This document shows, one piece after another, positions 816 through 63,754 of a stretch of 64,000 nt of DNA. The position numbers and the translations under genes were made by a program. The DNA is taken from IMG/VR virus record IMGVR_UViG_2645727636_000004, positions 76,925 through 140,924 of that record. One strand, given 5' to 3'. The notes beneath the pieces were generated by a model. It was not told where the DNA came from and made no database searches. It saw only the letters and a list, made by a program, of their open reading frames with translations. Origin of the DNA: a virus (taxonomy: Duplodnaviria > Heunggongvirae > Uroviricota > Caudoviricetes). Position 1 is the stretch's first letter. Each line of letters opens with the position of its first letter.

Positions 816-843
816 AATTAAATAATAAAATACACAAAATACA

Positions 844-873
844 TTGACTTGTAATTTGTGATTATGGTAATAT
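844..873 (+). promoter_or_regulatory. sigma-A-like promoter: TTGACT, 18-nt spacer, extended -10 TGgTAATAT
   Basis: -35 TTGACT at 844-849; TG at 865-866; -10 TAATAT at 868-873; preceded by AAATACACAAAATACAT at 827-843. Confidence 0.6.
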
Positions 874-1011
874 CAGGTTTAGAATAAATGGTGGCTTCGA
901 CTAATTATAAATACTAATTTAAATTTGTAGTTGGAAGTTGTATACCATTTCAGTATCAATTAAAATTGATCTATAAAAGTATAATATTATTTAAAATGGA
1001 GGAATGAAATA

Positions 1012-1266
1012 ATGGCAAAATTAACAAATGTTCAGTTAGAAAAAATTCAAAAAAATTTTGAAGTAGATGGAGATATACTTGTGATTAATCATGAAGAAAG
1101 TCAATATGTCGGTGATATTTATAAGATTAAACTTAAACCAAACTCATTGATTGATACAGAGCATCATCCAATTAACCTATCTAAGCACTGTATAGAAATG
1201 ATTAAACAAATTGTAGGCGATGGTATTTCATTTAACAACACTAATACTACGTTTTGGATTCAATGA
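1012..1266 (+). CDS. hypothetical protein (84 aa)
   Basis: ORF with RBS aaaatGGAGGaatgaaataATG. Confidence 0.6.
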   Translation: MAKLTNVQLEKIQKNFEVDGDILVINHEESQYVGDIYKIKLKPNSLIDTEHHPINLSKHCIEMIKQIVGDGISFNNTNTTFWIQ

Positions 1267-1302
1267 AATCAGCATTTTATAAAATATAAGGAGGAAGTAA
1301 TT

Positions 1303-1443
1303 ATGAATATCAAATGTGAAAATTGTAATTGGGAAGGTAAAGAAGAGGATTTAATTCACGTTGCTGATGATTACGGATCAGGGAAGTTAGAAACTTGCCC
1401 TAATTGTAAAGATAGTTGGCATTTACATGATGAGGAATACTAG
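1303..1443 (+). CDS. small Cys4 zinc-ribbon protein (46 aa)
   Basis: Translation MNIKCENCNWEGKEEDL...TCPNCKDSWHLHDEEY has CxxC...CxxC; RBS AAGGAGGaagtaattATG; below the 60-aa track cutoff. Confidence 0.45.
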   Translation: MNIKCENCNWEGKEEDLIHVADDYGSGKLETCPNCKDSWHLHDEEY

Positions 1444-1483
1444 ATAATAGAAGTCTTTTATCTAAACGATAGGGAGATACTTT

Positions 1484-1867
1484 ATGGCAGATATCAGATT
1501 TGCAGTGAGTGATGATTACCTAAGTGAATTTCAAAAACATTCGATGGAAGGATATATCACATCGTACACTTTAGAGCTAGACTTTTTCGATGAAGTAGAA
1601 GTAATTGGTGTTATTAATATAATTTTTGACGTAATTGGGTATGGAATAGATGGTTTTGATGGAGGTATTGATATTTCATATCAAGTTATGTATTTTCAAG
1701 ATCCATTGAACAAAGAAGATTATCTAGACGATAACGAGGCTTTCATTTATATTTTTTCAAACTATGGAAACGATATAATGACTGTAGTTAACTTAGCTTA
1801 TGATGCTTTAGATGATTTCTATACAAATGGTACTCCATTGAACAAATTTGCGTATCATTTCAAGTAA
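1484..1867 (+). CDS. hypothetical acidic protein (127 aa)
   Basis: ORF with RBS gatAGGGAGatactttATG. Confidence 0.6.
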   Translation: MADIRFAVSDDYLSEFQKHSMEGYITSYTLELDFFDEVEVIGVINIIFDVIGYGIDGFDGGIDISYQVMYFQDPLNKEDYLDDNEAFIYIFSNYGNDIMTVVNLAYDALDDFYTNGTPLNKFAYHFK

Positions 1868-1899
1868 AATAAAACAGTGATTTTATAGGAGTAGAGAAG

Positions 1900-2604
1900 A
1901 TGGATTTAAACAATATCATGAGTGAAGTAAGAGAAGCTCACTATAGAATTTATGAGCATTCAGTAGAAAATAAACAGGATATAAATGCATTAGATCAATC
2001 TTTAATATTCTTATCTAGCAATGCATTTTTGGAATTGAAATCATTGGTAGTATTGGTTGAAAATAAAGCTTATCATGGCACTTATAGTTTATGTAGGAGC
2101 ATATTAGAAAAATTTATTTATATGAGATACATTTTAGAAAAAGATTCAATGAACCGAGCTGAAGACTTTCAATTATCAAATTTAAAATCTTGGATCGAGA
2201 TATACGAAAAAACTAAAAAGATGTATCCAGAACAAGTGCCACCTATTGATAAAAACGAATTAAATGAATGTAAAAAACCATTCATTTCTTCTAAAGATAA
2301 ATATAAATGGTATTGTGGTAGTGGTACTAATTCAATTTCAAGGTTATTTAAATATTTTAAAAAAGATAAGTATGGATATTATTACATGAAGTATAGTGGT
2401 GAAACACACGGTAATGATTCGATCGCAAAATTTATAGATACTTTTAAATTAAATTATGACAAAGAACAATATGATAATTCAGAGGTTGTGTACATTGCGT
2501 TAGAGGCTTTTTGTGATATTTTAAAATCACTAATTGACCACTACAATCTCAAAGAGATAGTTACTTATTCTAATATTTATGAAGAATATACAGTGAAATT
2601 ATAA
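1900..2604 (+). CDS. hypothetical protein (234 aa)
   Basis: ORF with RBS atAGGAGtagagaagATG. Confidence 0.6.
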   Translation: MDLNNIMSEVREAHYRIYEHSVENKQDINALDQSLIFLSSNAFLELKSLVVLVENKAYHGTYSLCRSILEKFIYMRYILEKDSMNRAEDFQLSNLKSWIEIYEKTKKMYPEQVPPIDKNELNECKKPFISSKDKYKWYCGSGTNSISRLFKYFKKDKYGYYYMKYSGETHGNDSIAKFIDTFKLNYDKEQYDNSEVVYIALEAFCDILKSLIDHYNLKEIVTYSNIYEEYTVKL

Positions 2605-2642
2605 GATAAAATGAAGTTATTATTAAAAGGAAGGTGAAGCGA

Positions 2643-2870
2643 ATGTCAAAACAACCTGTGCCAAATTATATTTTAAAGAAGGCTTTACAACTGAATGAGC
2701 TAGATGCAAAACAGAAGAAATTGATCTCTGAAATTAAAAATTGGATGAATTTAAGTGGCTACTCTTATGATGATATTGTAAATGAAAATGGCATATTAAT
2801 GAAATTGGCGATTGGTGAATTTGAAAATATAGATGATATCAAACAAGCTTTTGATAACTTAAATAAATGA
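2643..2870 (+). CDS. hypothetical protein (75 aa)
   Basis: ATG at 2643 is preceded by AAAGGAAGGTG; the track's GTG at 2634 lies inside that RBS. Confidence 0.55.
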   Translation: MSKQPVPNYILKKALQLNELDAKQKKLISEIKNWMNLSGYSYDDIVNENGILMKLAIGEFENIDDIKQAFDNLNK

Positions 2871-4593: not shown

Positions 4594-4643
4594 AACAGTA
4601 AAATGTTATTAAAGTATAAAATACATAAAAGGATATTAATTGA

Positions 4644-7149: not shown

Positions 7150-7198
7150 TAACTGAATATTATATAAAAAAATACATAACAAAAGGATTGAATGCACC

Positions 7199-7570: not shown

Positions 7571-7687
7571 TGGTGAGTTTGACATAGGTGATATTGCACC
7601 TTGTCCAGACGGATTCACATTTGATGATGTAAGTAAGGCAATTAACAATTATGAACAATTTGTAAGTAGAAAATAAGGGGGATTCAG

Positions 7688-7906: not shown

Positions 7907-7947
7907 AAGTGATTTATTATAAAAATACATAAATAAGGGGAATTAAT

Positions 7948-9177: not shown

Positions 9178-9291
9178 ATCCTTTGATTTTAAAATTAAGA
9201 TATATCAACCTTTATTATATGCACTAAACAATTTAATTATGCTGCTTCAAAAAGGACATGTTTATTTTATATAATAAAATACATGAATATA

Positions 9292-9865: not shown

Positions 9866-9880
9866 AGGAGGAAATACATA

Positions 9881-10153
9881 ATGAAACGAAAATTAGTATT
9901 AGTAGGAATGTTAGGATTTACAATTTTATTTGGATGTAGTCAAAGTGATGAGGGAAATGTATACGCTAGTGATCAAGGTGAGATGAATGTAATGTCAGTA
10001 GATAGAGTACACAATGGTGACGCAGTTATACTAAAACATAAAGATACAGGTTGCTACTATACATATGTCAGAGGTACTGGTAGCAGCACATCTTCTGCTC
10101 CAACTCAAATGATGGTTGTGAAAGATGGAGTTGTTGTTCCGTATTGTGATTAA
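9881..10153 (+). CDS. putative lipoprotein (90 aa)
   Basis: Signal peptide MKRKLVLVGMLGFTILFGC with a lipobox-like LFGC, then a polar region; RBS AAAGGAGGaaatacataATG. Confidence 0.6.
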   Translation: MKRKLVLVGMLGFTILFGCSQSDEGNVYASDQGEMNVMSVDRVHNGDAVILKHKDTGCYYTYVRGTGSSTSSAPTQMMVVKDGVVVPYCD

Positions 10154-10212
10154 TTAAATAAATTGATTCTTTTATTAAAGTTTAAAAATACATAAAACGG
10201 AGGAATGGAGTA

Positions 10213-13134: not shown

Positions 13135-13156
13135 ATAATAAAATACATAAAATATG

Positions 13157-14311: not shown

Positions 14312-14356
14312 TATCATGCTTTTATAAAATTAAATACATAATAAGGAGTGGTGTAG

Positions 14357-16331: not shown

Positions 16332-16373
16332 ATTAGATTTATTATTAAAAATACATATTAAAGGATTGGCAAA

Positions 16374-17691: not shown

Positions 17692-17732
17692 TATCGCTCT
17701 ATCATTAAAAATACATAAAAGGAGTGTTTTGA

Positions 17733-19306: not shown

Positions 19307-19795
19307 TTGAAGATTAAATCAGGTAGGAAGCTACTTTTAGAAAAGAGAGAAAAAAGTAAATATAAATTCCCTTTATTATTTACTAAAGAAGGTCAAGAAT
19401 ATATGGGATCACACATTGCATCTATTAAGTCTAAAACATTTAAAGTTGATTACTATTTTAAAAATGGATATATATCATCAATTACATATACGAATGGTAT
19501 TGGTGGATTCTTACTAGCATCAACTTATGCAATATTAGGATACGTACTTCAATTAATACCTGTTGAAGATGTTAAGAAGTTAGGCATGGAGATTAATGGA
19601 GAAATAATTGAATTAAAAAAGAAGTATGTTTATACAGGATCATCTGTGAATATAAGCAGCAGATTAAATCCTAACGAAACAAGCTTAAAAATTTGGTTAG
19701 ATTCATATTTGGTAAGAAATGACAAAGAGAAATACGTTAAAAAGATTAAATGGAATGATAAAAATATTTGTGATTTAAATGTTAAAAATACATAA
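19307..19795 (+). CDS. hypothetical protein (TTG start; the track's ATG at 19274 lacks an RBS)
   Basis: AGGGGGA at 19291-19297 lies 9 nt before TTG 19307. Confidence 0.5.
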   Translation: MKIKSGRKLLLEKREKSKYKFPLLFTKEGQEYMGSHIASIKSKTFKVDYYFKNGYISSITYTNGIGGFLLASTYAILGYVLQLIPVEDVKKLGMEINGEIIELKKKYVYTGSSVNISSRLNPNETSLKIWLDSYLVRNDKEKYVKKIKWNDKNICDLNVKNT

Positions 19796-21250: not shown

Positions 21251-21336
21251 TTTGATAATAGTTATCTTTTATTTAAATAAATACATATTTGGAGGATGGT
21301 CTTTTTGACTCTCTTTTTTTATTTGTAATATTTCCG

Positions 21337-23151: not shown

Positions 23152-23197
23152 AAATACATAATTAATACTTGATTTTATGTATTTTGTTAATTATACT
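23152..23197 (+). promoter_or_regulatory. perfect palindrome of the AAATACATAA motif overlapping a sigma-A-like promoter (TTGATT, 17-nt spacer, TATACT)
   Basis: Arms at 23152-23161 and 23175-23184 (TTATGTATTT) with a 13-nt spacer; -35 at 23169-23174; -10 at 23192-23197. Confidence 0.5.
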
Positions 23198-24676: not shown

Positions 24677-24711
24677 ATAAGAAATACATATTTGAAGAAA
24701 GGGGTTTATAT

Positions 24712-25295: not shown

Positions 25296-25523
25296 GTGGG
25301 CGTAGTTTGTAGAGGGTTCGCTAAAGAGTACAAAAGGTTAGTAAATAAAGTAAATAAAGATTTGCCAATCGTAGATTTTGATGAGTTTACACATTTAGGA
25401 ATGGATGTAGCTATTGCATTAGCTAAAGTTAGAAAAGGAATTAATCCATTGAAAGACGAGTTAAGTAAGTATAAAGGATGTTATTCGGAGCTGAACTACT
25501 TTGATTACAGTAAAATTAAATAA
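25296..25523 (+). CDS. hypothetical protein (75 aa), GTG start
   Basis: GGGGATG lies about 10 nt upstream of the GTG. Confidence 0.5.
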   Translation: MGVVCRGFAKEYKRLVNKVNKDLPIVDFDEFTHLGMDVAIALAKVRKGINPLKDELSKYKGCYSELNYFDYSKIK

Positions 25524-25545
25524 ATACATAAATGAGGATAGGTAG

Positions 25546-26399: not shown

Positions 26400-26461
26400 A
26401 AGAAATATTAAATAATAATTTCATTTTATAAAAACAAATACATAATAAAGGAGTGTTCAAA

Positions 26462-29221: not shown

Positions 29222-29258
29222 AAACTAAATATTATTAAATACATAAAAGGAGAATAGT

Positions 29259-30538: not shown

Positions 30539-30635
30539 ATAAAATAAATAATAAAATACATAAAAAATGCTTTACAATACACAAAATAATGGATATACTA
30601 TTATTAATAAAGAAATTATAAAGGGGTTGCAAATA

Positions 30636-31709
30636 ATGGTTATGGTTAATCACAATACTTCATATATGGGCAACTACATAGGAGATTATATAGAAGAGTT
30701 TTTAAAAGTAAAAGGTAAAAAGTCTTTTAATACAGAAAAAACTTATAGGTCTAGTTTGAATCAAGTGTTTAAGGACATCTTAGGTAACAATGATTATATT
30801 TATATAACAGATAAAAATATTGAACATGACTTACGTTCAGAAATTTTGTTTGAATATTTCGATTCATTATATGATGCAGAAAAAGAAGATGGTACTAGGA
30901 TGTATGCTAATCAGACGATTAATAGTAGACAATCTGCGATTAAGTCATTGATCACTTATTTAAAGACAAAGAAAATAGATGGAGAAAATTTAATAAAGTA
31001 TGATTTAGATGATTTGAAAGTAATTGAATCGCTTAAGAACATAGGCGAAGAAATAGAAATGATACCATTTGAATTATCAATGGAATACATTGAATATTTT
31101 GGAAAAGAAGAACAGGGCTTAGAGAAATCATTAATTATTGAATTAGCTATAGACTCCGCACTTAGAGCATCTGAATTATTAAAGATAGAATGGTCAAATT
31201 TCACACCAGTAGAAGACGGAGTTATTATGAAGTCTCATGGTTACAATAAAGGAAAAGGCAATGAAGAATGGATAGACAAGATATCCTTTGAACTATATAA
31301 TAAGTTGTTACAACTAAAAGAAATTGGAAATACGAATAAATTATTTACTTTGACTTACAAAAAATTAGTCGGGATGATGGATAGGGCTAATAAGCTATTA
31401 AATAATACAGATTTAGAATACTCTTTCCATTCATTTAAAAAATTATCCGTTACGATGTGTTATTTAAACAATGGAAATTGCATAGATTCAGCAATGAAAA
31501 AGGCTCGACATAAAAATGTAAATACCACTATGAGATATCTAAGATTAACCAATCTGAATGTTACAGGTATTATATCTGCAAAAATGACTACTGCTGAAGA
31601 ATTATATAAAACAGCTTCACATGAATTATTATTAGAATGTTTAGAAGAAATGCGTCCAGAGATGCTTTTATTACTAAATAATAAAATCAAGAATAAAATA
31701 ACAAAATGA
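30636..31709 (+). CDS. tyrosine site-specific recombinase (integrase/Xer-like), catalytic residues intact (357 aa)
   Basis: R in ALRASEL; H in FHSFKK; RHKNVNTTMRYLRL matches the box II R-H...Y signature; ATG at 30636 preceded by AAAGGGGttgcaaataATG (the track's start at 30567 has no RBS). Confidence 0.75.
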   Translation: MVMVNHNTSYMGNYIGDYIEEFLKVKGKKSFNTEKTYRSSLNQVFKDILGNNDYIYITDKNIEHDLRSEILFEYFDSLYDAEKEDGTRMYANQTINSRQSAIKSLITYLKTKKIDGENLIKYDLDDLKVIESLKNIGEEIEMIPFELSMEYIEYFGKEEQGLEKSLIIELAIDSALRASELLKIEWSNFTPVEDGVIMKSHGYNKGKGNEEWIDKISFELYNKLLQLKEIGNTNKLFTLTYKKLVGMMDRANKLLNNTDLEYSFHSFKKLSVTMCYLNNGNCIDSAMKKARHKNVNTTMRYLRLTNLNVTGIISAKMTTAEELYKTASHELLLECLEEMRPEMLLLLNNKIKNKITK

Positions 31710-31776: not shown

Positions 31777-33123
31777 ATGAAAATCAATAAAGATAGAGAA
31801 TCTTTAGAGACAGAAGTAAAAAGTCTAATTTCTTTATTTGCTACAACTGTAGATAAAAAAGAATTTGACTTAATTGTAGAGCATTTAAATAGTAAACATG
31901 GAATTAAAAAGTCTAATGTTTATATGTTACTTAACAACTCAAATAATGTATCTAAATTAACATTAGAAGAATTAGCATTATTCGGAAAACAATTAACTGT
32001 AAAATTAGGAATTGATAATATTGAATGGATGAATACTTGGTTCACTGAAAGAGAAATTAAAGAATTCGAAAGATTTCAATTTGTTGATATGCAATCAATT
32101 GATGATCTAGATTTCCCTATAACGCTTTCCAATGTAACTTATCTTGGAAATGGATACTATAATTTAACAATTACAAGACAATTGCTTGGTAGGTTATATA
32201 AATACGGTAAATTAAACTACAATCCAAATGTACAACGTGGAATGAGAAAAGTCTATCGTTATGGTAAAGAGATGGAAGAACCAATTGTATTTAAAAGTAA
32301 AGTAACTGAAATGAGTAAATTGACATTAGAAGATAAATTAGAACCATCAACAATAACATTAAATGCAGCACAAATGTCGTCTGATGAAGGTGAAGAACTA
32401 ATTTACGATGAAAAATCGCACAAATTAACAATAAATTCAGGGACAATTTTAGATATCGTAGACGGAATGCATAGAACGTTAGCAACATATAGTGCATATT
32501 CAAAAGATAAAGACATTAACGGATCTTATCCAATTACTATTTCTAACAAATCAGATGAAGAAATTCAGAGATATCAAGTAAATATGGATAAACAAACTCC
32601 ATTAACAAGAAGTAAGATTGTCGAGTATTCAGGTGGGCATGTTAGTAATGTGATTAATATTTTAAAATCTAAAGGTGAATTAAAAGACAGAATTAGTTCA
32701 GTAGGAGACAGTAAGGCAACTTTACGCGGTAGTGATATTATCCCTTATAAAATGCTACATGCTGCTATTAGTAATGTTTATAATATTGATTCTGTACTTC
32801 AATCAAGAAAAGTTGCAGATGAAATAAATGAATATCTAGTATATCTATTTGGGTATTTTGGTAAGCACGAAAGAGATGAATATAAAGTATTGTTTGATGC
32901 AGATTTATTCGAAGCTCATTTAACTTTGGCTAGTAAGATGAAAGAGAATAAAATTCCGTATGACAAACTGTCTGAAATAATTAAAATTGAAGCATTTAAT
33001 ATAGAGAATAAATTCTGGAAAGATACAAATGTAATCAATAATGAAGGTAAAGTAGTAAACAAGAAAATGAGAAGGAAGATAAGTGATTTCTTTGAAGGTA
33101 TGTTAGAGGAGGCAGAATTGTAG
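31777..33123 (+). CDS. DGQHR-domain (DndB-like, ParB/Srx-fold) protein with an extra N-terminal domain (448 aa)
   Basis: NVQRGMRKVYRYGKEM followed about 70 aa later by ILDIVDGMHRTLA, paralleling the QR...DGQHR layout of the DndB family; RBS GAAAGGAGttttttaaATG. Confidence 0.55.
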   Translation: MKINKDRESLETEVKSLISLFATTVDKKEFDLIVEHLNSKHGIKKSNVYMLLNNSNNVSKLTLEELALFGKQLTVKLGIDNIEWMNTWFTEREIKEFERFQFVDMQSIDDLDFPITLSNVTYLGNGYYNLTITRQLLGRLYKYGKLNYNPNVQRGMRKVYRYGKEMEEPIVFKSKVTEMSKLTLEDKLEPSTITLNAAQMSSDEGEELIYDEKSHKLTINSGTILDIVDGMHRTLATYSAYSKDKDINGSYPITISNKSDEEIQRYQVNMDKQTPLTRSKIVEYSGGHVSNVINILKSKGELKDRISSVGDSKATLRGSDIIPYKMLHAAISNVYNIDSVLQSRKVADEINEYLVYLFGYFGKHERDEYKVLFDADLFEAHLTLASKMKENKIPYDKLSEIIKIEAFNIENKFWKDTNVINNEGKVVNKKMRRKISDFFEGMLEEAEL

Positions 33124-34100
33124 TGTATAACAGAGAATATAAAATGAAATTTATTGAAACTTTAGATGTTAAAGAAATAAGTGAGGAGCGTTATGTTTAT
33201 CTTTTTGAAAAAACAGCGGAAGTTGAATTTAAAATTAATAAAGATTTGTTTGATATGAATTTCGAAGAATTGGAAATTACTTTTTATGCAGCTAAGAGAA
33301 GTAAGCATCGATCACTAATTTCATATATTACAACTATAAAAAATTACATTACATGGGCTAAAGATAATGGTTATGGCGTATCACCAGTTCATCCAATCGT
33401 GGAATCTATCAATACTTCTTTTGTTGATAAATACTTATATAAAGAAGGATTAACTTATTATACAAGAGAAGCTTTACTTATGAATATTGAAAAGCTTATA
33501 AATGTTCGTGATAAAGCAATCGTTTTAGCAGTGTTTGAGGGGATCAGAGGTAAGGCTTTATCTGAATTAACTAATTTACGATATGAAGATTTATCTGAAA
33601 AAGAAGGTAAATATTATGCATCATTGCTTTCTGATGAAATTAATTTAGATAATCGTCAAATTGAAATATCTAAAGAGTTATACGACTTATTTGTTCAAAC
33701 TTATAGAAAAACAGAGTACATTGGAAAGAAAGGAAATGTTACTCGTGTTGCTGATGGAGAATATATATTAAGAAAGAATCGAGTAGGTGAAGGTGATATT
33801 AGATTTACAGTCAGTATGATTAATAGTTTATTCTCGGGCATCATTAAAACTGAGTTTGAAGATGCTCAAATAACAGTAACCTCATTAATTGAATCTGGGG
33901 CAATGTGGTATACAAATTCATTACTAAAAGATGACAGAGTTATTACTAAAGAAATAGCTACCAATGTAATGAATAGATACGGTTTATACTCGTTCAAAGG
34001 TGAAAAGAAAAGTTATCCTTCATTTATGAGATATAAAGAAGTTATAAATGATGAATTTTTTGAAGATAACTATGGCAGCTTTAAATATGAATTTAAATAA
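33123..34100 (+). CDS. tyrosine-recombinase-like protein, apparently degenerate (box I Arg retained, box II His/Arg/His not found); GTG start with stop/start overlap (325 aa)
   Basis: DKAIVLAVFEGIRGKALSELTNLRYEDL resembles recombinase box I; no HxxR...Y found downstream; RBS GAGGAGG lies 9 nt before the GTG. Confidence 0.5.
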   Translation: MYNREYKMKFIETLDVKEISEERYVYLFEKTAEVEFKINKDLFDMNFEELEITFYAAKRSKHRSLISYITTIKNYITWAKDNGYGVSPVHPIVESINTSFVDKYLYKEGLTYYTREALLMNIEKLINVRDKAIVLAVFEGIRGKALSELTNLRYEDLSEKEGKYYASLLSDEINLDNRQIEISKELYDLFVQTYRKTEYIGKKGNVTRVADGEYILRKNRVGEGDIRFTVSMINSLFSGIIKTEFEDAQITVTSLIESGAMWYTNSLLKDDRVITKEIATNVMNRYGLYSFKGEKKSYPSFMRYKEVINDEFFEDNYGSFKYEFK

Positions 34101-34142: not shown

Positions 34143-34267
34143 CATAAAAATAAATAAATGATTGTACAATGTTTGATTTTTGCTAAATTTATTCAAAGAA
34201 ATAGAAATGGAGAATATTTCTAGGAACAATCAAACGAAAAATAAGAACAAATGTTTGCATTTCTATA

Positions 34268-34296
34268 TTGACAATACTGTATATGGTTGGTAAAAT
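34268..34296 (+). promoter_or_regulatory. strong sigma-A-like promoter: TTGACA, 17-nt spacer, TAAAAT
   Basis: Consensus -35 at 34268-34273; -10 at 34291-34296; lies in a 250-bp non-coding gap. Confidence 0.6.
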
Positions 34297-34367
34297 TGTA
34301 TCAATAGAGATGATAGTAGATGCTACATCTATACTAAAATTAATGGAAAATGGAGGAATATTACAAT

Positions 34368-34817
34368 ATGAGTGCACTTTTAGTATCATTTGAAGCTAAT
34401 CTAGTAATAAAAGATAAAAGTCCAGAAGAGTTGGAGGAGTTGTTTGATGGATTGCTACCGTCAAACGGACTCCATATGAAAAACATAAAGGGTAGAAAAT
34501 TATTAGTTGAATGTATGGATTCGCAATTTACAGAGATTTTAGAAATCGATGAAGATGGACAAGAAGTAACTTTTTTAAATCGTAAACCAGAATTAAAATA
34601 TTATCCTTCAACAAATAATACTTTTAAAACTAATGATATGATTAGGATTAATGGGAAAGGTGACTACAATATCATCTTGACTCCTATGTTTGCATTTTTA
34701 TACAACGGCGAAACACAGACTACTATTGAGATGGACAACGTAAAAAATATCAATGATACGAAGCTATATCTAGAACAAAACTATCCGGAATACATAGTGC
34801 TTCGTAAGATTACCTGA
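34368..34817 (+). CDS. hypothetical protein (149 aa)
   Basis: ATG at 34368 preceded by aaatGGAGGaatattacaatATG. Confidence 0.55.
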   Translation: MSALLVSFEANLVIKDKSPEELEELFDGLLPSNGLHMKNIKGRKLLVECMDSQFTEILEIDEDGQEVTFLNRKPELKYYPSTNNTFKTNDMIRINGKGDYNIILTPMFAFLYNGETQTTIEMDNVKNINDTKLYLEQNYPEYIVLRKIT

Positions 34818-34922
34818 TCAGATTAATTAATGATGATTAATGTTAGGGTGTGGTATTAGGGGTGTTTCTAATGTCGCACCTTGAAATTAATAAACAATAA
34901 AATACATAAAGGTGGTATGTTC

Positions 34923-35132
34923 ATGATTAAAAAGTATAGTAAAAAGCGATATGAAGATTTTGGACTGTTCATTTCTCCTAATAGACGTGGAGATGGGTTT
35001 AAAATAATAAGAGATGAGGATGGTTGGATATTTGACAAAACTTACAAAGATAAAGACTCAGCGCAAAGATGGATAGATGAAATGATTGATCTTATAGATA
35101 ATTCAAAAGCTAAATGGGAAGCAAATACATAA
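34923..35132 (+). CDS. hypothetical protein (69 aa)
   Basis: AAAGGTGG lies 7 nt before ATG 34923; motif at 34900-34909. Confidence 0.5.
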   Translation: MIKKYSKKRYEDFGLFISPNRRGDGFKIIRDEDGWIFDKTYKDKDSAQRWIDEMIDLIDNSKAKWEANT

Positions 35133-35159
35133 AATACATAATGACTGAGGTAAATATAT

Positions 35160-35549: not shown

Positions 35550-35578
35550 AAATACATATACATAAAGGTGAGATAAGA

Positions 35579-35818: not shown

Positions 35819-35993
35819 TTGGATTGAACCTAAAGAATATAATGTAATTGGACGTTGTGTAAACAAAGAATGCTTAAATGAAATAACTAGAGAAGATGAG
35901 TATCTGGTAGATGATCACAATTTATATTGTGACTCAATTTGTTATACTAAATATATGTTGGAACAAGGTGCAGTCAAGGAAATTAAATATTAA
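35748..35993 (+). CDS. Cys-rich hypothetical protein; start unclear, with a large overlap and no canonical start near the overlap end
   Basis: From the ORF track; CVNKEC...CDSICY motif. Confidence 0.35.
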   Translation: MSCKKSIILFRKIATLVRVKKLNNWIEPKEYNVIGRCVNKECLNEITREDEYLVDDHNLYCDSICYTKYMLEQGAVKEIKY

Positions 35994-36053
35994 AATACAT
36001 AATTTAAATAAATATATATTTAAAATTAATTATACATAAAAGAGGATGCAGAT

Positions 36054-36227: not shown

Positions 36228-36256
36228 AATACATATACATAATGAGGAGAATTAGT

Positions 36257-37919: not shown

Positions 37920-38116
37920 AAGCGAATATCGTAAATTAAATAATAAAATACATAAAATGCACTTGAAATTAATAAGTTGTTAGATTAAGATATATTTAAC
38001 AAATGAAACGAAGAAATGATAATTATAACATTCTCATTATAAATAAATAGTTGTTATGTAGCAAAAGTCGGTGATTAATTAATAAAATACATAATAATGA
38101 AATGGAGATGTTGACG

Positions 38117-38308
38117 ATGTATGAAGAGATAAAGCAGGTTAGTAGTGACCCCATAATAGATGATAAACTAAGACAAGCTATGATTAAGCAAATGGAAATA
38201 GGTTATCAACAAATGTATGAAATCAATCTTCAAATGGCAAACGACATGTTTCATCTGGAAAGTGAAGCTGAAACAATTAATGATAATATTGTAAAAGGTG
38301 AATGGTAA
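38117..38308 (+). CDS. hypothetical protein (63 aa)
   Basis: ATG at 38117 preceded by aatGGAGatgttgacgATG; motif at 38085-38094. Confidence 0.5.
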   Translation: MYEEIKQVSSDPIIDDKLRQAMIKQMEIGYQQMYEINLQMANDMFHLESEAETINDNIVKGEW

Positions 38309-38435
38309 GTTAACTAAAGAAGACTATGTTGCTTTAATAGTAAATACTATAAATTAATATTAACTGTTAAAGCAATGTGGATTTTAATAAACGGATGTTT
38401 TTAATTTAAAAATACATAAGAATAGAGGTGTAAAA

Positions 38436-39021: not shown

Positions 39022-39648
39022 ATGGATAAATTAACAAATGAAGAATTAGTGGAGTTATATAAGAAAGGCAAAGAAGAGGCAGGAAATGAATTATTTAATA
39101 GGAATAAAGGTTTAATCTATGAAATCGTAAGAAAGTTTAATAATAAGTCTAGGTTGAGCGAAGAAGATATAATAAGTGCATCTTACTATGGATTTGCAAA
39201 AGCTATTAAAACTTTTAATGAATCAAAAGGAATAAAATTCTCTACATACTGTTACACTGTTATGAAAAATGAAGTATGTAAAAGTTTAGAATACTACAAA
39301 TATAAGAAGAATGATGACTCAGATTTTATTATTTCATCATTAGACCTTAAGATATCTTTAGAAAATAAAAAATCTTCTTTGATAGAAATATTGGACGCTT
39401 CAGATAACGATGTATTACATAAAAATGACTATACATACTTACATAATGCAATAGAATACGCAAGGACACTGATAATTGAAAAGTATCATCCGTACTTATT
39501 ACCATTGCTATTTAGAGAAACAACTACGTATGAAGTAGCTCCAATTATTGGGGTAAGTCCAAGAACAGTGCATTATACAACTACAATGTTTAGAGAGCAT
39601 GTGCGTGAATATATTTATCATTATTCAAATGGTGAAATAGTTTCCTAG
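39022..39648 (+). CDS. phage-encoded sigma-70-family RNA polymerase sigma factor (208 aa)
   Basis: Region 2-like LVELYKKGKEEAGNELFNRNKGLIYEIVRKF...DIISASYYGFAKAIKTFNESKGIKFSTYCYTVMKNEV; C-terminal HTH-like TYEVAPIIGVSPRTVHYTTTMFREHV (region 4). Confidence 0.7.
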   Translation: MDKLTNEELVELYKKGKEEAGNELFNRNKGLIYEIVRKFNNKSRLSEEDIISASYYGFAKAIKTFNESKGIKFSTYCYTVMKNEVCKSLEYYKYKKNDDSDFIISSLDLKISLENKKSSLIEILDASDNDVLHKNDYTYLHNAIEYARTLIIEKYHPYLLPLLFRETTTYEVAPIIGVSPRTVHYTTTMFREHVREYIYHYSNGEIVS

Positions 39649-41681: not shown

Positions 41682-41730
41682 TATAGAAAATACATAAAAT
41701 ACACGTATTATCGAAAAGAGGAGGTTTAAA

Positions 41731-42312
41731 TTGAATACTGAATACCTAAAAGAACAACTTGATAATATTATGTCTTTCCGTGATACATATAAAACTTCTA
41801 CAACAGAAGATAAATATTTACATAATGAACTATCTAAGATGATTAGAGTGATTAAAAGTAAAATTTGGGATGAAGAACATGATGAATACAATAGGAATAG
41901 ACTGAAAACAAAAACTATTGATGGTGTAGAGATTGTTATTCCAGAATTTATAAGTGGTCTTGATGACGATTATGAGTTTAAACATGTCGACAATACTTTA
42001 TATGCTCTACCAAGTAAGTGCTCAAAAGACGAAGATGGTTCATTTCATGAGTACGTATATGCGTATATTAAAGAGAATGATAATAAACATGTTCGATTTC
42101 TTGTTAGATTACTAGGAGGAGATAGGTTTGGAGATCGAATTTTTACAGAGGCAAATTATTATAAAAAGATAGAAAGTAATTATAAGTATCTAAATAAAAA
42201 CTACGGAAAAGATGATCGTTTTCCAGAGAAGTTTAGAAAGCAAGTTGAAACAATTATTAATGAATTTAATAAGTTAGATGGAGTTAATGATTTCAATCCA
42301 ATTACAAAATAA
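41731..42312 (+). CDS. hypothetical protein (193 aa), TTG start
   Basis: RBS AAGAGGAGGtttaaaTTG; motif at 41688-41697. Confidence 0.55.
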   Translation: MNTEYLKEQLDNIMSFRDTYKTSTTEDKYLHNELSKMIRVIKSKIWDEEHDEYNRNRLKTKTIDGVEIVIPEFISGLDDDYEFKHVDNTLYALPSKCSKDEDGSFHEYVYAYIKENDNKHVRFLVRLLGGDRFGDRIFTEANYYKKIESNYKYLNKNYGKDDRFPEKFRKQVETIINEFNKLDGVNDFNPITK

Positions 42313-42341
42313 AATACATAGCGAAAAGGAGAATAAACATA

Positions 42342-44159: not shown

Positions 44160-44204
44160 TATTTCAGTTTTATTTAAGAAAATATATAAAAGGAGATTGA
44201 TTAA

Positions 44205-45817: not shown

Positions 45818-45846
45818 AAATTAAATAATAAAATACATAAAAATAC

Positions 45847-45900: not shown

Positions 45901-46074
45901 ATGACGATGGTCAGTAGATTGACTTATGAACATGAGATGGAGATTTTGAACGAGCTAGACTTATTGAATGAACAACAAGAATTTACTCGTGATAATGTTG
46001 TTTGGTGTAATAAGACGATCAAGAAACTGCTACTAGAATTACATTTTATAAGAAATGATATTATTAATCAATAA
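45901..46074 (+). CDS. hypothetical protein (57 aa)
   Basis: AAAGGGAG at 45891-45898; ATG at 45901 or 45907. Confidence 0.4.
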   Translation: MTMVSRLTYEHEMEILNELDLLNEQQEFTRDNVVWCNKTIKKLLLELHFIRNDIINQ

Positions 46075-46096
46075 AATACATAAAAAGTTAGGTGAT

Positions 46097-47011: not shown

Positions 47012-47110
47012 GTAAAATCCTAATATTATTTAAACTTTTAGTTAGGTACATTGTGATTGGTTCGATAATTAATAATTAAAATACATAATTGAAATGGAGA
47101 GATTTATTTA

Positions 47111-48879: not shown

Positions 48880-48930
48880 CATTTGTAATTAAAATAAAAA
48901 ATACATAATTAATAGGAGTGTAATTTATTC

Positions 48931-58222: not shown

Positions 58223-58314
58223 ACATTTATATTACAAAATACATAATTTTGATAAAAATTAAATATTATTAAATGTAAAAAAGGAAGTGGGTTATTCTGC
58301 AAACAAAACACGTT

Positions 58315-59337
58315 GTGATGTTCTCAACAGGAGCAGGAAGTGCATGGTTAACTAAGTATGTAGTAGACAAGTATGGTAAGGAAAATACGATCATCTTAAT
58401 TACAGACACTAAATGGGAAGATGAAGACAATTACCGTTTCATGAAAGAAGTTGCTGATTACATTGGAATAGAAATTACTGAGAAATCAGATGGACGTACT
58501 CCAGAGGATATATTTAGAAAGGATTTGTATTTTGGAAACTTCGGAACAGCTCCATGTAGTAAAGAGTTGAAGATGAAGCAAACATTTTTATACATACAAG
58601 AATTAATTGAACAGGGTATTTTACCAATCTTATATTTTGGCATTGATTATAAAGAAGCTAGACGTGCTCCTAGGTTGGCTTATAACTATAAACATAATGT
58701 AGACGTGTTTGAGGATGGAGTAGAGTTACGTTTCCCTCTGATAGCTGAAATTGATGGTGAACCAGTAAATGGCAAACAATTAATACATAATAGAGATTTT
58801 CTAAATTCTGATAAAATGCCTAAAGTATACAATAAGGAAATTTATGAATCATTAGAATCCCAAGGAGCTACTATTTGTACTGCTAATCCGAAGCACGAAA
58901 TCGAGAATAATTGGGGAATTAAATTACCAAGAATGTATAGTGCTGTTGAAGAAGCTGCTAAAGATAAGAGTAATATGAAAGCAAATGAACTTTTAGAAAA
59001 AGGAGTCAAAGGTTTTTCTCATGCAAATTGTGGAGGAATTTGTGTTAAGGGAGGTATGGGGCATTACTCTGTATTATATGCTGTTTGGGAAGATCGGTAT
59101 TTAAAAATGGAAAAGTTAGAGCGAGAAATCAATGATGCCCAAATTGCAAAGAATGGTAGACGTTATACAATTTTAAGTAAGTTGATTCCTACTGGTGAGC
59201 TTGATGAGAAAGGTAAAGAGAAGAAAAAGAAAGTACCTTATTCATTAGAAGAATATCGATTAGAAGTTTTAGAAGGAGATATTAACTCAAACGTAGAGGT
59301 AGAAGAAAATACGATAGCATGTGAGTGCGTATTCTAA
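58315..59337 (+). CDS. PAPS-reductase/DndC-like PP-loop ATP pyrophosphatase-family protein; start uncertain (frame is open from 58279 with no canonical start before GTG 58315)
   Basis: HVVMFSTGAGSAW resembles the vvvSFSGGKDS PP-loop; C-terminal Cys cluster HANCGGICVKGG; RBS AAGGAAGTGG at 58282-58290 is too far from 58315. Confidence 0.5.
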   Translation: MMFSTGAGSAWLTKYVVDKYGKENTIILITDTKWEDEDNYRFMKEVADYIGIEITEKSDGRTPEDIFRKDLYFGNFGTAPCSKELKMKQTFLYIQELIEQGILPILYFGIDYKEARRAPRLAYNYKHNVDVFEDGVELRFPLIAEIDGEPVNGKQLIHNRDFLNSDKMPKVYNKEIYESLESQGATICTANPKHEIENNWGIKLPRMYSAVEEAAKDKSNMKANELLEKGVKGFSHANCGGICVKGGMGHYSVLYAVWEDRYLKMEKLEREINDAQIAKNGRRYTILSKLIPTGELDEKGKEKKKKVPYSLEEYRLEVLEGDINSNVEVEENTIACECVF

Positions 59338-59400
59338 TCAAGAAAATACATAATTTGATTTAAATAAAAGAAACCTATTATGAAAAGGAGAAGGTGTAAT

Positions 59401-61533: not shown

Positions 61534-61594
61534 TAAGTATTCTATAAAAGATTAGTATTATAAAAACAAATACATAAAAGGAGATTTATTAATC

Positions 61595-61831: not shown

Positions 61832-61857
61832 TAAATATATAAATGGAGTTGAGTCTT

Positions 61858-62067
61858 ATGCAGGATGGGAAAACAGTAACCGAACAAAATGTGTGGGAAC
61901 ATTACAAAAGGGTGGAAGCAGAAAACTTTCACCTAAAGAAACAACTTGTCAATAAGAATAGACAAATTAACCAGCTTAAGCGTGTGATTAGTCAATGGAA
62001 AAGTAAGTATGAAAAACTTATGGAGAATCGTAAGCCTAAGTACAAAAATACAATCAGAAGAAAGTAA
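61858..62067 (+). CDS. hypothetical basic protein (69 aa)
   Basis: ATG at 61858 preceded by aatGGAGttgagtcttATG. Confidence 0.5.
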   Translation: MQDGKTVTEQNVWEHYKRVEAENFHLKKQLVNKNRQINQLKRVISQWKSKYEKLMENRKPKYKNTIRRK

Positions 62068-62081
62068 GGAGATGGATATTA

Positions 62082-62237
62082 ATGGATAGTGTAAAAGTTA
62101 GTATTAGATGTGAGACAGGGATTTTCAATCGTAATGAAGTGGATATGAATCAATATCTAGAATTAGTAAATGAAGATGTAAGTGTTTTACTACCAGAGAA
62201 TCAATTCATTGGTGTTAAGGTTACGGTTGAAAAATAA
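62082..62237 (+). CDS. hypothetical protein (51 aa)
   Basis: RBS gtAAGGAGatggatattaATG. Confidence 0.4.
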   Translation: MDSVKVSIRCETGIFNRNEVDMNQYLELVNEDVSVLLPENQFIGVKVTVEK

Positions 62238-62274
62238 GATAGGTGGCAACTTACGCCAGAGGAGAATAATTAAT

Positions 62275-62754
62275 ATGAAAAATTTCTTAATGAATGTAAT
62301 GGACTTAAAAGTTTTTGATGAGAAAGGTAAATTTATCACAAAGTTAGATACTGCTACAAAAGGTGAATTAGTACATAGTGATCAAGCATCATATTTCGCA
62401 ATTAACATTTCGGATTTTAATATTGATATGATAAAAGCCATTGGAGAAGTTGAAAATACTGAATCATTATCTGATTTCGAAAAAGAATTAGCTCCTAAGT
62501 CAACTAAGATTAAATTTAAACCATTGTATCGCAATGAAAATGAGAAGAAGTTTAAGTTGGTTGCTGAAGGTGAGTTATATAATAGCTCTGGAGACGTTTC
62601 TCATGACTTTAAAGTGATTATTAATGAGTCAGTATTGATGTCTGGATTAGAATTTGAATTTAGTAATGTCGATATCAGTGAATATACACATGTATTTGCT
62701 ATTCGTGTAGATGATAATGGAAATAGCTTTGAATTAGAATTGATTGAAAAATAA
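62275..62754 (+). CDS. hypothetical protein (159 aa)
   Basis: ATG at 62275 preceded by caGAGGAGaataattaatATG. Confidence 0.55.
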   Translation: MKNFLMNVMDLKVFDEKGKFITKLDTATKGELVHSDQASYFAINISDFNIDMIKAIGEVENTESLSDFEKELAPKSTKIKFKPLYRNENEKKFKLVAEGELYNSSGDVSHDFKVIINESVLMSGLEFEFSNVDISEYTHVFAIRVDDNGNSFELELIEK

Positions 62755-62763
62755 GTAGTAAAT

Positions 62764-62812
62764 ATAGTAGGAATATGGTGGAAATATCACTTTATTATCA
62801 TATTCCTACTAT
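62764..62812 (+). repeat. perfect 14-bp inverted repeat (ATAGTAGGAATATG/CATATTCCTACTAT) with a 21-nt loop
   Basis: Arms at 62764-62777 and 62799-62812; intergenic; not followed by a T-run. Confidence 0.55.
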
Positions 62813-62881
62813 AGAATTTAGATAAAATGACAATATTATTTAAATAATAAAAATACATAAACAGAATGGAGAAATTAATGT

Positions 62882-63706
62882 ATGACGATTTTACAAAACG
62901 CTTATAATGCCTATTTATCTAAGAAGTACGAGAAAGAGATTAATGAGTTTAAAGACTACGCTTTGAATAAATTAGACAAATCGATCACAAATACAGAAAA
63001 TAATTTATTACGTTACGTCACTAATGATCATTACGGTTACGATAAAATTCAAAGCGAGAAAGAAACTTTAAAAACATTACAGAAATTAAAAAGCTGCGTA
63101 TCAGGAAATATATTGTCATTAAATATTAATTACGGAGAGTATCCAGTATATATCACATATGAGTTAGAAGAAAAGTACAATAAATTGAACGGCTTGATTG
63201 TAAAAGGTGAAACAGTGCAATTTGATGAAAATAAGTATAAATGGGATTTGACTAATACCAACGCAGCAACAGACATTATCAATAAACACTTTGAAGAAGT
63301 GAAAAATATTATTGATGAACAAACAAACGATCTTGCTGAAATTAAAGATGATAACAAGAATAACTTAAATGGTGACATTGATTTAAAAGCTTATATTCAA
63401 GAACGTAAAGATGAGCATATGAAGATGATTGAGGAAGAAAAGAATAAGCAACAAGAAATACATGATAAGCTTATGAAAAATATTAAATTTACAATGGATT
63501 ATTGGGAGAAATACTATAAAGATAAGCTGAGTGAAATTGATAGTAATTTCAATATCTCAGTATCAATAAATGAACTGTCGCAAGGAACGAAATTGGCTCT
63601 CAAAATCATCAAACCCGAAGCCTTAGGTTTAAGTAATGAAGAAGCAAAAATGTTTGCAGATATTATTGTGGATAAAATTAAGAAGAATAAGGGTGGATTG
63701 TATTAA
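62882..63706 (+). CDS. hypothetical protein (274 aa)
   Basis: RBS aatGGAGaaattaatgtATG; motif at 62851-62860. Confidence 0.55.
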   Translation: MTILQNAYNAYLSKKYEKEINEFKDYALNKLDKSITNTENNLLRYVTNDHYGYDKIQSEKETLKTLQKLKSCVSGNILSLNINYGEYPVYITYELEEKYNKLNGLIVKGETVQFDENKYKWDLTNTNAATDIINKHFEEVKNIIDEQTNDLAEIKDDNKNNLNGDIDLKAYIQERKDEHMKMIEEEKNKQQEIHDKLMKNIKFTMDYWEKYYKDKLSEIDSNFNISVSINELSQGTKLALKIIKPEALGLSNEEAKMFADIIVDKIKKNKGGLY

Positions 63707-63754
63707 ATAATATTTTGATTTTATAAAACACATAAATCGAAGGGAAATAAAATA

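Follow-up and report, generated by a model that had tools for sequence, protein, structure and literature searches.

What is the 10-nucleotide word AAATACATAA, which recurs ahead of gene after gene in this viral DNA? We addressed the question in the window, i.e. the whole stretch of 64,000 nucleotides given above (positions 76,925 to 140,924 of IMG/VR record IMGVR_UViG_2645727636_000004, Caudoviricetes), whose + strand carries essentially all genes. A reading made from the sequence alone had noticed the abundance of the word, and proposed either a promoter devoid of −35 element, an RNA element of the 5′ untranslated region (5′-UTR), or an upstream activator site. Our analysis points in another direction: the word is probably the core of an asymmetric, A-tract-rich box of ~24 bp, read by the integrase-fold protein encoded at 33123-34100, a homolog of the SroF, MrpR and YopR repressors of SPβ-like phages.

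The word AAATACATAA was present in 35 exact copies, 33 on the + strand and 2 on the − strand (at 1686 and 23175), where dinucleotide-preserving shuffles gave 1.36 ± 1.19 copies (maximum 4). With one mismatch allowed, 88 matches were counted for 34 expected. In a k-mer analysis it was the sole strongly over-represented word of the window. A 26-nt position weight matrix (PWM) was then refined iteratively. At a threshold of at least 14 bits, it detected 46 sites on the + strand, hereafter called strong sites, and 1 on the − strand; at a threshold of at least 16 bits, the numbers were 33 and 0. The excess on the + strand announced by the sequence-only reading is therefore real, and the comparison with the reverse complement, which it had proposed as a check, shows that the word is not equally frequent on the − strand (46:1 by PWM). 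Its coordinates were right to within 1–2 nt (10186 and not 10187, 47079 and not 47078, 35550/35556 and not 35548), and its list of copies lacked four exact ones in or overlapping coding sequence (9872, 17455, 40602, 45465).

Conservation among the copies exceeds 10 nt, as it includes a TTAA at −10 to −7 and an A-rich stretch 5′ of the core. The information of the PWM is maximal on T-A-C-A-T. The full box, approximately AATTAAATAATAAAATACATAAAA (written as an oligonucleotide, AATTAAATAATAAAATACATAAAAAT), is asymmetric and ~24 bp long, with an A-rich 5′ half and AAATACATAA as its best-conserved core. Core variants found in the window are AAATACACAA (T8→C), AAATACATGA, AAATACATAT, ATATACATAA, AAATACATAG, AAATATATAA (C6→T) and AAACACATAA. 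Strong sites are scattered over distant parts of the window, and the word is also found in the late operon of a relative. We conclude that it is a real regulatory sequence under strong selection.

Two arrangements relative to genes had been described from the sequence, and both were found again. In class I, the core is followed by a Shine-Dalgarno (SD) sequence and a start codon; in class II, it is followed by the −35 hexamer of a σA-type promoter. At 30 of the 46 strong sites (~65%, compared to 10% of random positions), an SD and a start codon were present 12–22 nt past the core, the SD beginning 2–8 nt past the word. The median distance from core end to start codon was about 15–16 nt, in fair agreement with the 15–25 nt first announced. 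A TTGnnn-N16-18-TAnnnT pattern was found 5–7 nt past the core at 6 of the 46 sites (8 with relaxed criteria), for a random-position rate of 0.7%; a promoter-like pair follows 6/46 sites, compared to 1.3% of all positions (p = 3e-5). The offset to the −35 claimed for the cores at 828 (827–843), 9277, 13141, 23152, 37946 and 45831 was measured at 5–7 nt in all of them, and the core at 30554 is an extra case; the 16-nt gap separating the core at 21279 from TTGACT was found as announced. Relative to the start of transcription, class II boxes occupy about −51 to −42. The sites are the following.

828..837, + strand: class II core, variant AAATACACAA; TTGACT starts 6 nt past the core, spacer 18, TAATAT
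4619..4628, + strand: class I core; start codon at 4644 (15 nt past the core)
7170..7179, + strand: class I core; start codon at 7199
7923..7932, + strand: class I core; start codon at 7948
9277..9286, + strand: class II core, variant AAATACATGA; TTGAAA starts 5 nt past the core, spacer 17, TAATAT
9872..9881, + strand: exact copy between SD and start codon, its final A being the A of the ATG at 9881
10186..10195, + strand: class I core; start codon at 10213
13141..13150, + strand: class II core, after a terminator (13100-13127); TTGTAA 6 nt past the core, spacer 17, TAATAT
14332..14341, + strand: class I core; start codon at 14357
16349..16358, + strand: class I core, variant AAATACATAT; start codon at 16374
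17455, + strand: exact copy in or overlapping coding sequence
17709..17718, + strand: class I core; start codon at 17733
19786..19795, + strand: class I core; start codon at 19809
21279..21288, + strand: core, variant AAATACATAT; TTGACT 16 nt downstream
23152..23161, + strand: class II core, after a terminator (23085-23110); TTGATT 7 nt past the core, spacer 17, TATACT; conserved in relatives L024, L079 and L127
23175..23184, − strand: inverted copy (read as TTATGTATTT on the + strand) in the spacer of the promoter at box 23152; the only strong minus-strand site
24682..24691, + strand: class I core, variant AAATACATAT; start codon at 24712
25522..25531, + strand: class I core; start codon at 25546
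26436..26445, + strand: class I core; start codon at 26462
29237..29246, + strand: class I core; start codon at 29259
30554..30563, + strand: class II core at the repressor-operon promoter; terminator hairpin, box, 7 nt, TTTACA, spacer 17, TATACT; conserved in 5/5 genomes
34900..34909, + strand: class I core; start codon at 34917
35123..35141, + strand: tandem pair of cores that overlap (35123 and 35132; period 9 nt), followed by the start codon at 35160
35556..35565, + strand: class I core, variant ATATACATAA, overlapping AAATACATAT at 35550; start codon at 35579
35993..36002, + strand: core, context uncertain
36030-36039, + strand: class I core; start codon at 36054
36233..36242, + strand: class I core, variant ATATACATAA, overlapping AAATACATAT at 36227; start codon at 36257
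37946..37955, + strand: class II core; TTGAAA 7 nt past the core, spacer 17, TAAGAT
38085..38094, + strand: class I core in the leader of the transcription unit of the promoter at 37946 (P37946); start codon at 38117
38410..38419, + strand: class I core; start codon at 38436
40602, + strand: exact copy in or overlapping coding sequence
41688..41697, + strand: core, then a partial repeat AATACAC; start codon at 41731
42312..42321, + strand: class I core, variant AAATACATAG; start codon at 42342
44180..44189, + strand: class I core, variant AAATATATAA, in which the MazF hexamer (see below) is broken; start codon at 44205
45465, + strand: exact copy in or overlapping coding sequence
45831..45840, + strand: class II core; TTGTAA 6 nt past the core, spacer 16, TATAAT with TG
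46074..46083, + strand: class I core; start codon at 46103
47079..47088, + strand: class I core; start codon at 47111 (yorF-like gene)
48899..48908, + strand: class I core; start codon at 48931 (Sak4/yorG-like gene)
58237..58246, + strand: core directly past the DNA polymerase gene, ahead of the open reading frame (ORF) 58315-59337
59344..59353, + strand: core 47 nt ahead of the next start codon
60312..60321, + strand: class I core, variant AAATATATAA; start codon at 60340
61568..61577, + strand: class I core; start codon at 61595
62851..62860, + strand: class I core; start codon at 62882
63726..63735, + strand: class I core, variant AAACACATAA; start codon at 63755

Overlapping or tandem cores with a period of 6-10 nt were seen at 35123-35141, 35550-35565, 36227-36242 and 41688-41707, and a partial second copy (AATAC) abuts the −35 at several class II sites. 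Such repeats may point to two registers of binding, either adjacent or alternative.

A third context was encountered in L128, the late-operon locus of a relative. There, copies lie 0–7 nt past a stop codon and 0–12 nt ahead of an intrinsic terminator hairpin (at 1640, 5793, 7426, 8439 and 10524 of that locus), and three copies surround one promoter, in the order gene end/terminator, box, promoter, box, SD. Overall, the copies are evenly spread across early, replication and late genes, and are not tied to a single temporal class. No second conserved element was detected near the word at promoter (−35) spacing. Scans with the consensus of σ70-type promoters and of terminators were uninformative on their own, as in this DNA of 29% GC their matches were no commoner than in shuffles.

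We then asked whether the box is kept in relatives. All four that were compared (two IMG/VR contigs and two Lysinibacillus genomes) have the same core at 0.6–0.7 copies per kb, and it is equally strand-exclusive, e.g. 12:0 in 21 kb. On a contig of 132 kb, 55 kb away, a gene in reverse orientation beside the tape-measure gene is preceded by a copy on the other strand, and in L128 all 11 copies are oriented with the genes. At 14 orthologous sites, identity was ~0.90 over positions −13 to +10 (24 nt), compared to ~0.79 in the alignable flanks. When two orthologous promoter regions were aligned, the box stood out as a separate conserved block, as did the terminator stem, −35, −10 and SD, amid sequence that had diverged. 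Likewise, the box at 37946 belongs to a 25-nt block conserved in five genomes, next to upstream DNA that is unalignable. A 16-mer probe (motif plus SD) run against IMG/VR gave mostly chance matches, and the only true relatives it returned were L024, L035, L079 and L116. No comparable word was seen in LC76P1 or in the examined region of PBC2, the phages with the nearest DNA polymerases, so that polymerase similarity does not track the motif.

Which protein might read the box? The gene order of the window is syntenic with cluster III of SPβ, with yopP-, yopQ- and yopR-like genes at 30.6–34.1 kb, then at 47–58 kb yorF, yorG (Sak4), yorH, yorI (DnaB), yorJ, yorK (RecJ) and yorL (the α subunit of DNA polymerase III, Pol III α). 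The yopP-yopQ-yopR operon, also named sroD-F, is present, and the region is organised as follows.

30636..31709, + strand: yopP/sroD-like tyrosine recombinase gene
31777..33123, + strand: yopQ/sroE-like gene (phrog_5732)
33123..34100, + strand: gene of the SroF/MrpR/YopR-family integrase-fold repressor, the proposed box reader
34245..34256, + strand: LexA-type SOS box GAACAAATGTTT, directly past the repressor gene and its terminator, 11 nt ahead of the next −35
34268..34296, + strand: strongest σA-type promoter of the window (TTGACA, spacer 17, TGgTAAAAT), with no box in class II register
34350..34817, + strand: 155-aa ORF in the position of the antirepressor gene sar, driven by the promoter at 34268..34296

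The product of 33123-34100 matches the Pfam family MrpR_N_CB (1.4e-15), as well as MrpR_C_cat (3.3e-5, below the Pfam cut-off). Against PDB, SroF, YopR and MrpR chains were retrieved with E values from 2e-15 to 6e-9; the closest solved homolog is 9RD5/9RGL (9rd5, 2e-15), and 8a0a/8bjv scored ~1e-9. Identity with SPβ YopR is 23%. The Pfam marks carried by the source assembly agree with this assignment. The same protein, without any change, is encoded on contig LIYL01000044.1 of assembly GCA_001278875.1, and homologs with 51–53% identity are encoded on the 132-kb contig, on another IMG/VR contig of 154 kb, and on the chromosomes of Lysinibacillus sp. BPa_S21 and L. zambalensis. On the basis of the synteny, and because repressor homologs reside in Lysinibacillus chromosomes, we assign the window to a temperate, SPβ-like prophage lineage with relatives resident in Lysinibacillus.

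The LexA box and strong promoter found in the sar position are conserved in five genomes of five, none of which has a box in operator register there. The 155-aa ORF has no similarity to phi3T Sar (E 0.16) and no Pfam match. This is not unexpected, since multiple specific SroF–Sar pairs have been described (bioRxiv 10.1101/2025.11.27.690993). By its position, the ORF is a candidate for an SOS-controlled antirepressor. A Pfam search with the small ORFs around the repressor operon gave nothing useful. We also observed that, in the terminator hairpin at 30510-30545, ahead of the promoter of the repressor operon, the stem (GAGAGTCGAT…GTCGGCTCTC) is maintained in five genomes and the loop is free to vary.

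In phi3T, SroF (the equivalent of YopR and MrpR) is a monomer whose CB and CAT domains close round an asymmetric 26-bp box, Phi3TRE; it reads 24 bp, centred on two A-tracts (bioRxiv 10.1101/2025.11.27.690993). Phi3TRE was defined experimentally as a repressor box (same reference, where Brady et al. 2023 is cited). Searching phi3T for its core AGAATAAAAATAAAAT with at most 2 mismatches, we found 23 copies on the gene-sense strand and 0 on the other. The phi3T box ends 5–6 nt ahead of −35 hexamers, is also found directly 5′ of SDs, and one pair flanks a promoter, 89 bp apart. Phi3TRE and the window box are thus both A-tract-rich, asymmetric and sense-only, both occur in dozens of copies over the early region, and both accompany a homologous integrase-fold repressor encoded in a syntenic operon. 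A left-justified alignment gives 15 identical positions out of 26, AATTAA…AAAATA being in register. They differ by their cores (AGAATAAAAATAAAAT in phi3T, TAATAAAATACATAA in the window), by their density (0.46 and 0.72 per kb, respectively), by the share of SD-proximal copies (30% and 65%) and by the MazF hexamer, present in the window core and absent from that of phi3T. The host genus is different too, and repressor binding, which is demonstrated for phi3T, is a prediction for the window.

In SPβ, the element concerned is SPBRE, which was reportedly described by Lazarevic in 1999. Peaks of MrpR in ChAP-seq coincide with SPBRE, and MrpR binds the yopM promoter (PMC10516654). From ten MrpR ChAP-seq targets of that study, we derived tAGACAAATACAAAtAATATGTATATAAT, an inverted repeat of wAwATACAwAw located in the promoter spacer. 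On the opposite strand, the right half of this repeat reads ATATACATAT, and 8 positions out of 10 agree with the window core. Like the window box, SPBRE is a repeated element found at early promoters, oriented with the genes, with an ATACA core, and it is bound by a homologous repressor; moreover, the inverted copy at 23175 of the window sits in the spacer, at the place held by TATGTAT in SPBRE. The difference is that SPBRE forms a quasi-palindrome inside the promoter spacer (TAGACA-N17-TATAAT). Only ~13 SPBRE elements were found in SPβ, and no abundant (SD-proximal) half-sites.

A fourth case was found in the Mammaliicoccus phage phi36, whose repressor is 31% identical to that of the window. 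Its word, TAAAATATA / aaagaTAAAATATAa, is present 30 times on the + strand and 0 on the − strand in 41 kb, in the same three contexts, and an SPβ-like phage of Staphylococcus shares it more weakly (13 to 5 by strand). As phi3T and phi36 have the same layout, each with its own word, the simplest account is that the abundant oriented word of each lineage is the cognate box of its SroF-family repressor. Two side observations were made on these phages. In the promoter cassettes of phi36 and of the Staphylococcus phage, two copies of the word are placed 82-86 bp apart, i.e. ~8 helical turns. In phi36, the annotation splits the MrpR homolog into two ORFs (19992-20513 and 20516-21004), perhaps owing to a frameshift.

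The homology of the reader and a layout identical to that of the validated phi3T box lead us to consider the window word as the core of a repressor box, most likely the counterpart of SPBRE and Phi3TRE with a new sequence specificity. The window has an integrase-fold repressor encoded in an operon, one multi-copy element, which is a ~24-bp A-tract box, and copies of this box at early σA-type promoters, including that of the repressor operon. A role at the DNA level is supported by the boxes lying between terminator and promoter, and by the conserved inverted copy in the promoter spacer at 23175.

By analogy with phi3T, one repressor monomer would clamp each box. Boxes ending 5-7 nt upstream of early σA-type −35s would be operators blocking initiation, and the box at the repressor operon's own promoter would permit autoregulation. 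At the promoter with boxes 23152 and 23175, the second, inverted copy in the spacer would recall the SPBRE arrangement. The SD-proximal boxes would be elongation roadblocks, local reservoirs of repressor, or both, and keep ~100 co-oriented genes silent in the lysogen; a clamp with ~1700 Å² of buried interface is plausible as a roadblock. Judging from its position, the box-free LexA-box promoter at 34245-34296 would allow induction, by expressing an SOS-controlled antirepressor.

Several points speak against this assignment. The residues with which phi3T SroF reads bases are not conserved in the window repressor. Of the 9 contact positions that could be aligned, in a part where the alignment is uncertain, 5 even distinguish it from its four clade-mates, yet all five share the 10-mer; within the Lysinibacillus clade, the covariation of these residues with the box was thus uninformative or mildly negative. 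The SPβ element is built differently, as an inverted repeat in the promoter spacer, and has ~13 copies only. No comparable word was seen in the PBC2 region examined, even though related large Bacillus phages do have MrpR homologs. With its centre near −46, a box misses the core promoter, so that occlusion is not self-evident, and it is hard to see what copies directly ahead of terminators would do as roadblocks. The information of the PWM peaks precisely on the MazF hexamer, and part of the constraint could therefore act on RNA. Finally, the link to this particular repressor relies on homology and on the identical layout.

The MazF hexamer deserves examination. Read as RNA, the core is AAA-UACAUA-A. 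MazF of B. subtilis, Listeria and S. aureus cleaves strictly at a conserved site, U^ACAUA (bioRxiv 10.64898/2026.08.06.743204), and phages of the SPβ family are known to activate and to inhibit MazF (PMC10769878). UACAUA is present in 40 of the 46 strong sites and, as the box lies in sense orientation, each transcript crossing a box carries it. The window contains 130 sense TACATA for 36 antisense. Inside genes, the 80 sense copies represent a ~3-fold excess over codon shuffling (28.8 ± 5.4), antisense copies being at expectation. Avoidance of MazF sites by the window was considered and rejected, since this sense excess is the opposite. We reproduced the sense excess for phi3T and SPβ cluster III (65-134 kb), for which it is published at the level of ORFs (bioRxiv 10.1101/2023.04.27.537455). 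However, sites are scattered within ORFs in these two phages, whereas in the window they are concentrated in the box: 57 of the 130 sense sites lie inside the repeated intergenic box, just 5′ of SDs. A MazE homolog resembling AimX is encoded by phages of the phi3T/SPβ type and by the window.

38117..38308, + strand: AimX-like/MazE-antitoxin-like ORF, candidate MazF inhibitor (PF27083 match; 47% identity over 30 aa to phi3T AimX)

In the lytic Lysinibacillus phage LC76P1 (44.5 kb), only 5 sense TACATA were counted where ~15 were expected, together with 20 antisense. Such a depletion is consistent with MazF avoidance, and hints that Lysinibacillus MazF shares the UACAUA specificity. Independently, we noted that the leader going from P37946 to the AimX/MazE-like ORF (37990-38116, ~110 nt) is almost invariant in the window, L006, L007, L126 and L127, in contrast with the proteins of these five genomes, which are ~50% diverged. 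This leader, which matches no Rfam family, may be a regulatory RNA or an antitermination target.

Could the word be selected mainly as RNA, being a MazF (NdoA/EndoA) cleavage cassette placed 5′ of SDs or ahead of terminator hairpins? Lytic mRNAs would then be hypersensitive when MazF is active, and the AimX-like MazE homolog would protect them during lytic growth. The strict specificity of MazF, the PWM peak on the hexamer found in most strong sites, the sense excess inside genes here as in phi3T and SPβ, the AimX/MazE-like ORF and the depletion in LC76P1 all fit with this possibility, and the pre-terminator copies become sensible, because cleavage would strip the protective 3′ hairpin. We nevertheless hold it for unlikely, as the constraint covers ~24 nt and not 6. 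Boxes between terminator and promoter, 5-7 nt from the −35, are equally conserved yet poorly or not transcribed; the hexamer is broken in two class II boxes and one ortholog, which nonetheless retain 9 of the 10 positions of the core; and one conserved copy is inverted, in a promoter spacer. In addition, phi3T and phi36 have the identical layout with words free of UACAUA, and the MazF sites within genes lack the context of the 10-mer. MazF alone cannot explain the 24-nt constraint, the conserved boxes between terminators and promoters (some with a broken hexamer), the inverted copy and the hexamer-free boxes, and for these reasons we keep a DNA operator as the primary function. Another RNA-level proposal is a translational operator or enhancer just ahead of the SD, to which the ribosome or an RNA-binding protein of the phage would attach; the T4 RegA operators and the start-associated sequences of cluster K mycobacteriophages are parallels. 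The 65% of sites ending 2-8 nt ahead of an SD, the tight distance to the start codon and the unstructured, A/U-rich sequence would suit it. It leaves the promoter-upstream, pre-terminator and inverted spacer copies unexplained, its counterpart in phi3T is a DNA operator, no Rfam family matched anywhere in the window, and no candidate RNA-binding protein was found; we regard it as highly improbable. Of the 5′-UTR RNA element initially proposed, there remains only the MazF hexamer UACAUA of the core.

At the DNA level, the initial proposal was a −35-less promoter in the style of T4 late promoters (TATAAATA, short phage promoters without −35), with very short leaders, used by the host RNA polymerase together with a sigma factor of the phage.

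39022..39648, + strand: phage sigma factor of 208 aa, region 2 most like SigK/SigE/SigF; considered as word reader, and rejected

Strand specificity and an intergenic, gene-proximal position are what a promoter would display. Sporulation sigma factors, which the SigK/SigE/SigF-like region 2 brings to mind, use CATA-type −10 elements, and a sigma-sized ORF of 208 aa occupies the same relative position in relative L006. T4 late promoters are likewise short, AT-rich, strand-specific words present in many copies near gene starts. Yet with an SD 2-8 nt past the word, transcripts starting 5-8 nt beyond a −10 would start inside or after the SD, no conserved partner exists at −35 spacing, and a promoter 0-12 nt ahead of an intrinsic terminator would fire into it, which is senseless. 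It is because of this terminator placement, the missing partner element and the lack of room for a start site ahead of the SD that we rejected the promoter, which now appears very unlikely. The fixed 5-7-nt offset to σA-type −35s would also be unexplained, as would the even distribution over early, replication and late genes. The layout is the same in phi3T and phi36, while a tblastn search with the sigma factor gave no match in phi3T, SPβ, and the Mammaliicoccus and Staphylococcus phage records (E ≤ 1e-5), and in phi3T it belongs to a repressor box. The comparison with T4 fails on the same grounds: the window word does not have a start geometry compatible with the SD, is found before terminators and at a fixed offset to σA promoters, and keeps its layout in relatives where no homolog of the sigma factor was found. 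The remaining proposal, an upstream activator or UP-like site, was right in that the word appears to be a protein-binding DNA site, but its sign is probably wrong, because the homologous elements are repressor operators. One may imagine a site for another factor enhancing σA promoters (a helix-turn-helix (HTH) regulator, an HU-like protein, an activator, or an UP-like contact with the C-terminal domain of the RNA polymerase α subunit, αCTD), the SD-proximal copies then serving some other role. The fixed position at about −51 to −42, which is that of UP elements and class I activators, and the A/T-richness of the extended sequence are in its favour, as is the fact that the reader was assigned here from sequence rather than by experiment. 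But only ~8 of the 46 sites are beside a promoter, a central invariant C is atypical for αCTD/UP contacts, the homologous phi3T layout is that of a demonstrated repressor box, and no other repeated word of the window could serve as repressor operator. We consider this alternative rather improbable.

Among other candidates, a promoter for YonO, the RNA polymerase of the phage family itself, was rejected, since this enzyme initiates at one site only, upstream of yonK (PMC5467207). A DnaA box, a LexA box, an IHF/HU site and the UP consensus were discarded on sequence, as were integron attC-like sites, nicking sites, ops/RfaH elements and pairing with 16S rRNA.

Returning to the repressor box, it is conceivable, though we put it forward only tentatively, that it is both stoperator-like and dual-coded. 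As DNA, it would be clamped by the repressor, which would block elongation in every intergenic space as well as initiation at early promoters, and as RNA it would bring a MazF site directly ahead of almost every SD and ahead of some terminators. With ~100 or more sense boxes per prophage, transcripts escaping the repressor would be cut cistron by cistron when MazF is free. If true, a single 10-mer would couple two known layers of the lysis-lysogeny decision in the SPβ family, repression by SroF and the MazEF/AimX axis. In cluster A mycobacteriophages (L5, TipsytheTRex), stoperators are asymmetric sites, more than 20 per genome (~0.5-0.7 per kb), to which a repressor binds as a monomer; they occur in promoters as well as in short spaces between genes, their orientation is strictly tied to the direction of transcription, and the block to elongation is demonstrated (PMC9283540). 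The window boxes are similarly numerous, asymmetric, located in promoters and short intergenic spaces, and oriented with transcription. In contrast, stoperators are 13-mers found in phages of an actinobacterial host, and their repressor has an HTH plus a Stoperator domain (L5 gp71-type), whereas the window box is ~24 bp long, its candidate reader has the integrase fold, and the elongation block is a supposition. The parallel would therefore concern the mode of action, not class membership.

To our knowledge, SroF/MrpR is the only phage master repressor with a tyrosine-recombinase fold. The structural basis of DNA recognition by SroF was solved only in 2025, and for a single box (bioRxiv 10.1101/2025.11.27.690993). 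A third distinct cognate box, together with the fourth one of the Mammaliicoccus and Staphylococcus phages, would provide natural specificity variants with which to decipher the recognition code and, for SPβ-like prophages of genera other than Bacillus, the immunity groups. The sense-only, mostly SD-proximal layout, shared with the phi3T box, suggests that long co-oriented operons are silenced by a block to elongation. If so, this would be a general, undescribed property of this repressor family, convergent with mycobacteriophage stoperators by way of an unrelated protein fold. No description of this box layout was found in the accessible literature. The MazF hexamer inside the box gives a handle on how MazF activity biases these phages to lysogeny, and the sense excess of MazF sites, known for phi3T and SPβ ORFs, is extended here to a Lysinibacillus prophage. 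In practice, the box is well suited as a marker with which to annotate this prophage lineage and to delimit its operons.

Some other features of the window were recorded. For the sigma factor, the k-mer analysis yielded no candidate promoter word, so its targets are probably outside the window, among late genes; a search of IMG/VR with peptide patterns found no relatives of it. A second LexA-like box suggests a second SOS-controlled transcription unit.

21373-21384: LexA-like box AAACAAACGTTC, just past TATAAT (~21355), ahead of an ORF starting near 21406

The 129-aa ORF preceded by tandem boxes (35160-35549) has a weak similarity to RNase H/RVT_3 (E 3e-5, just below the Pfam cut-off). Precomputed Pfam assignments mark ORFs 42342-43589 and 40917-41219 as Gad2 (anti-Gabija) and Phage_ABA_S. 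Anti-defence genes would accordingly be clustered between the repressor module and the replication genes; this stretch of 13 kb has no equivalent at the matching place of phi36. A megablast search with 10 kb of the window against the phage collection gave no match. The Pol III α gene (55037-58222) is closest, with 57-59% aa identity, to those of the large, lytic-looking Bacillus and Lysinibacillus siphophages PBC2, FADO and LC76P1. As read from these similarities, the genome is a mosaic, siphophage-like for its Pol III α gene, and SPβ-like for its lysogeny module (30567-34100) and its gene order. Lastly, in L128, recombinase-like, antirepressor-like and HTH genes are inserted among the tail genes (6407-9341), and the tape-measure gene is seemingly split (10607-11716 and 13712-20194) by an insert holding ORF 12052-13515 and a class II box with its promoter at 11879.

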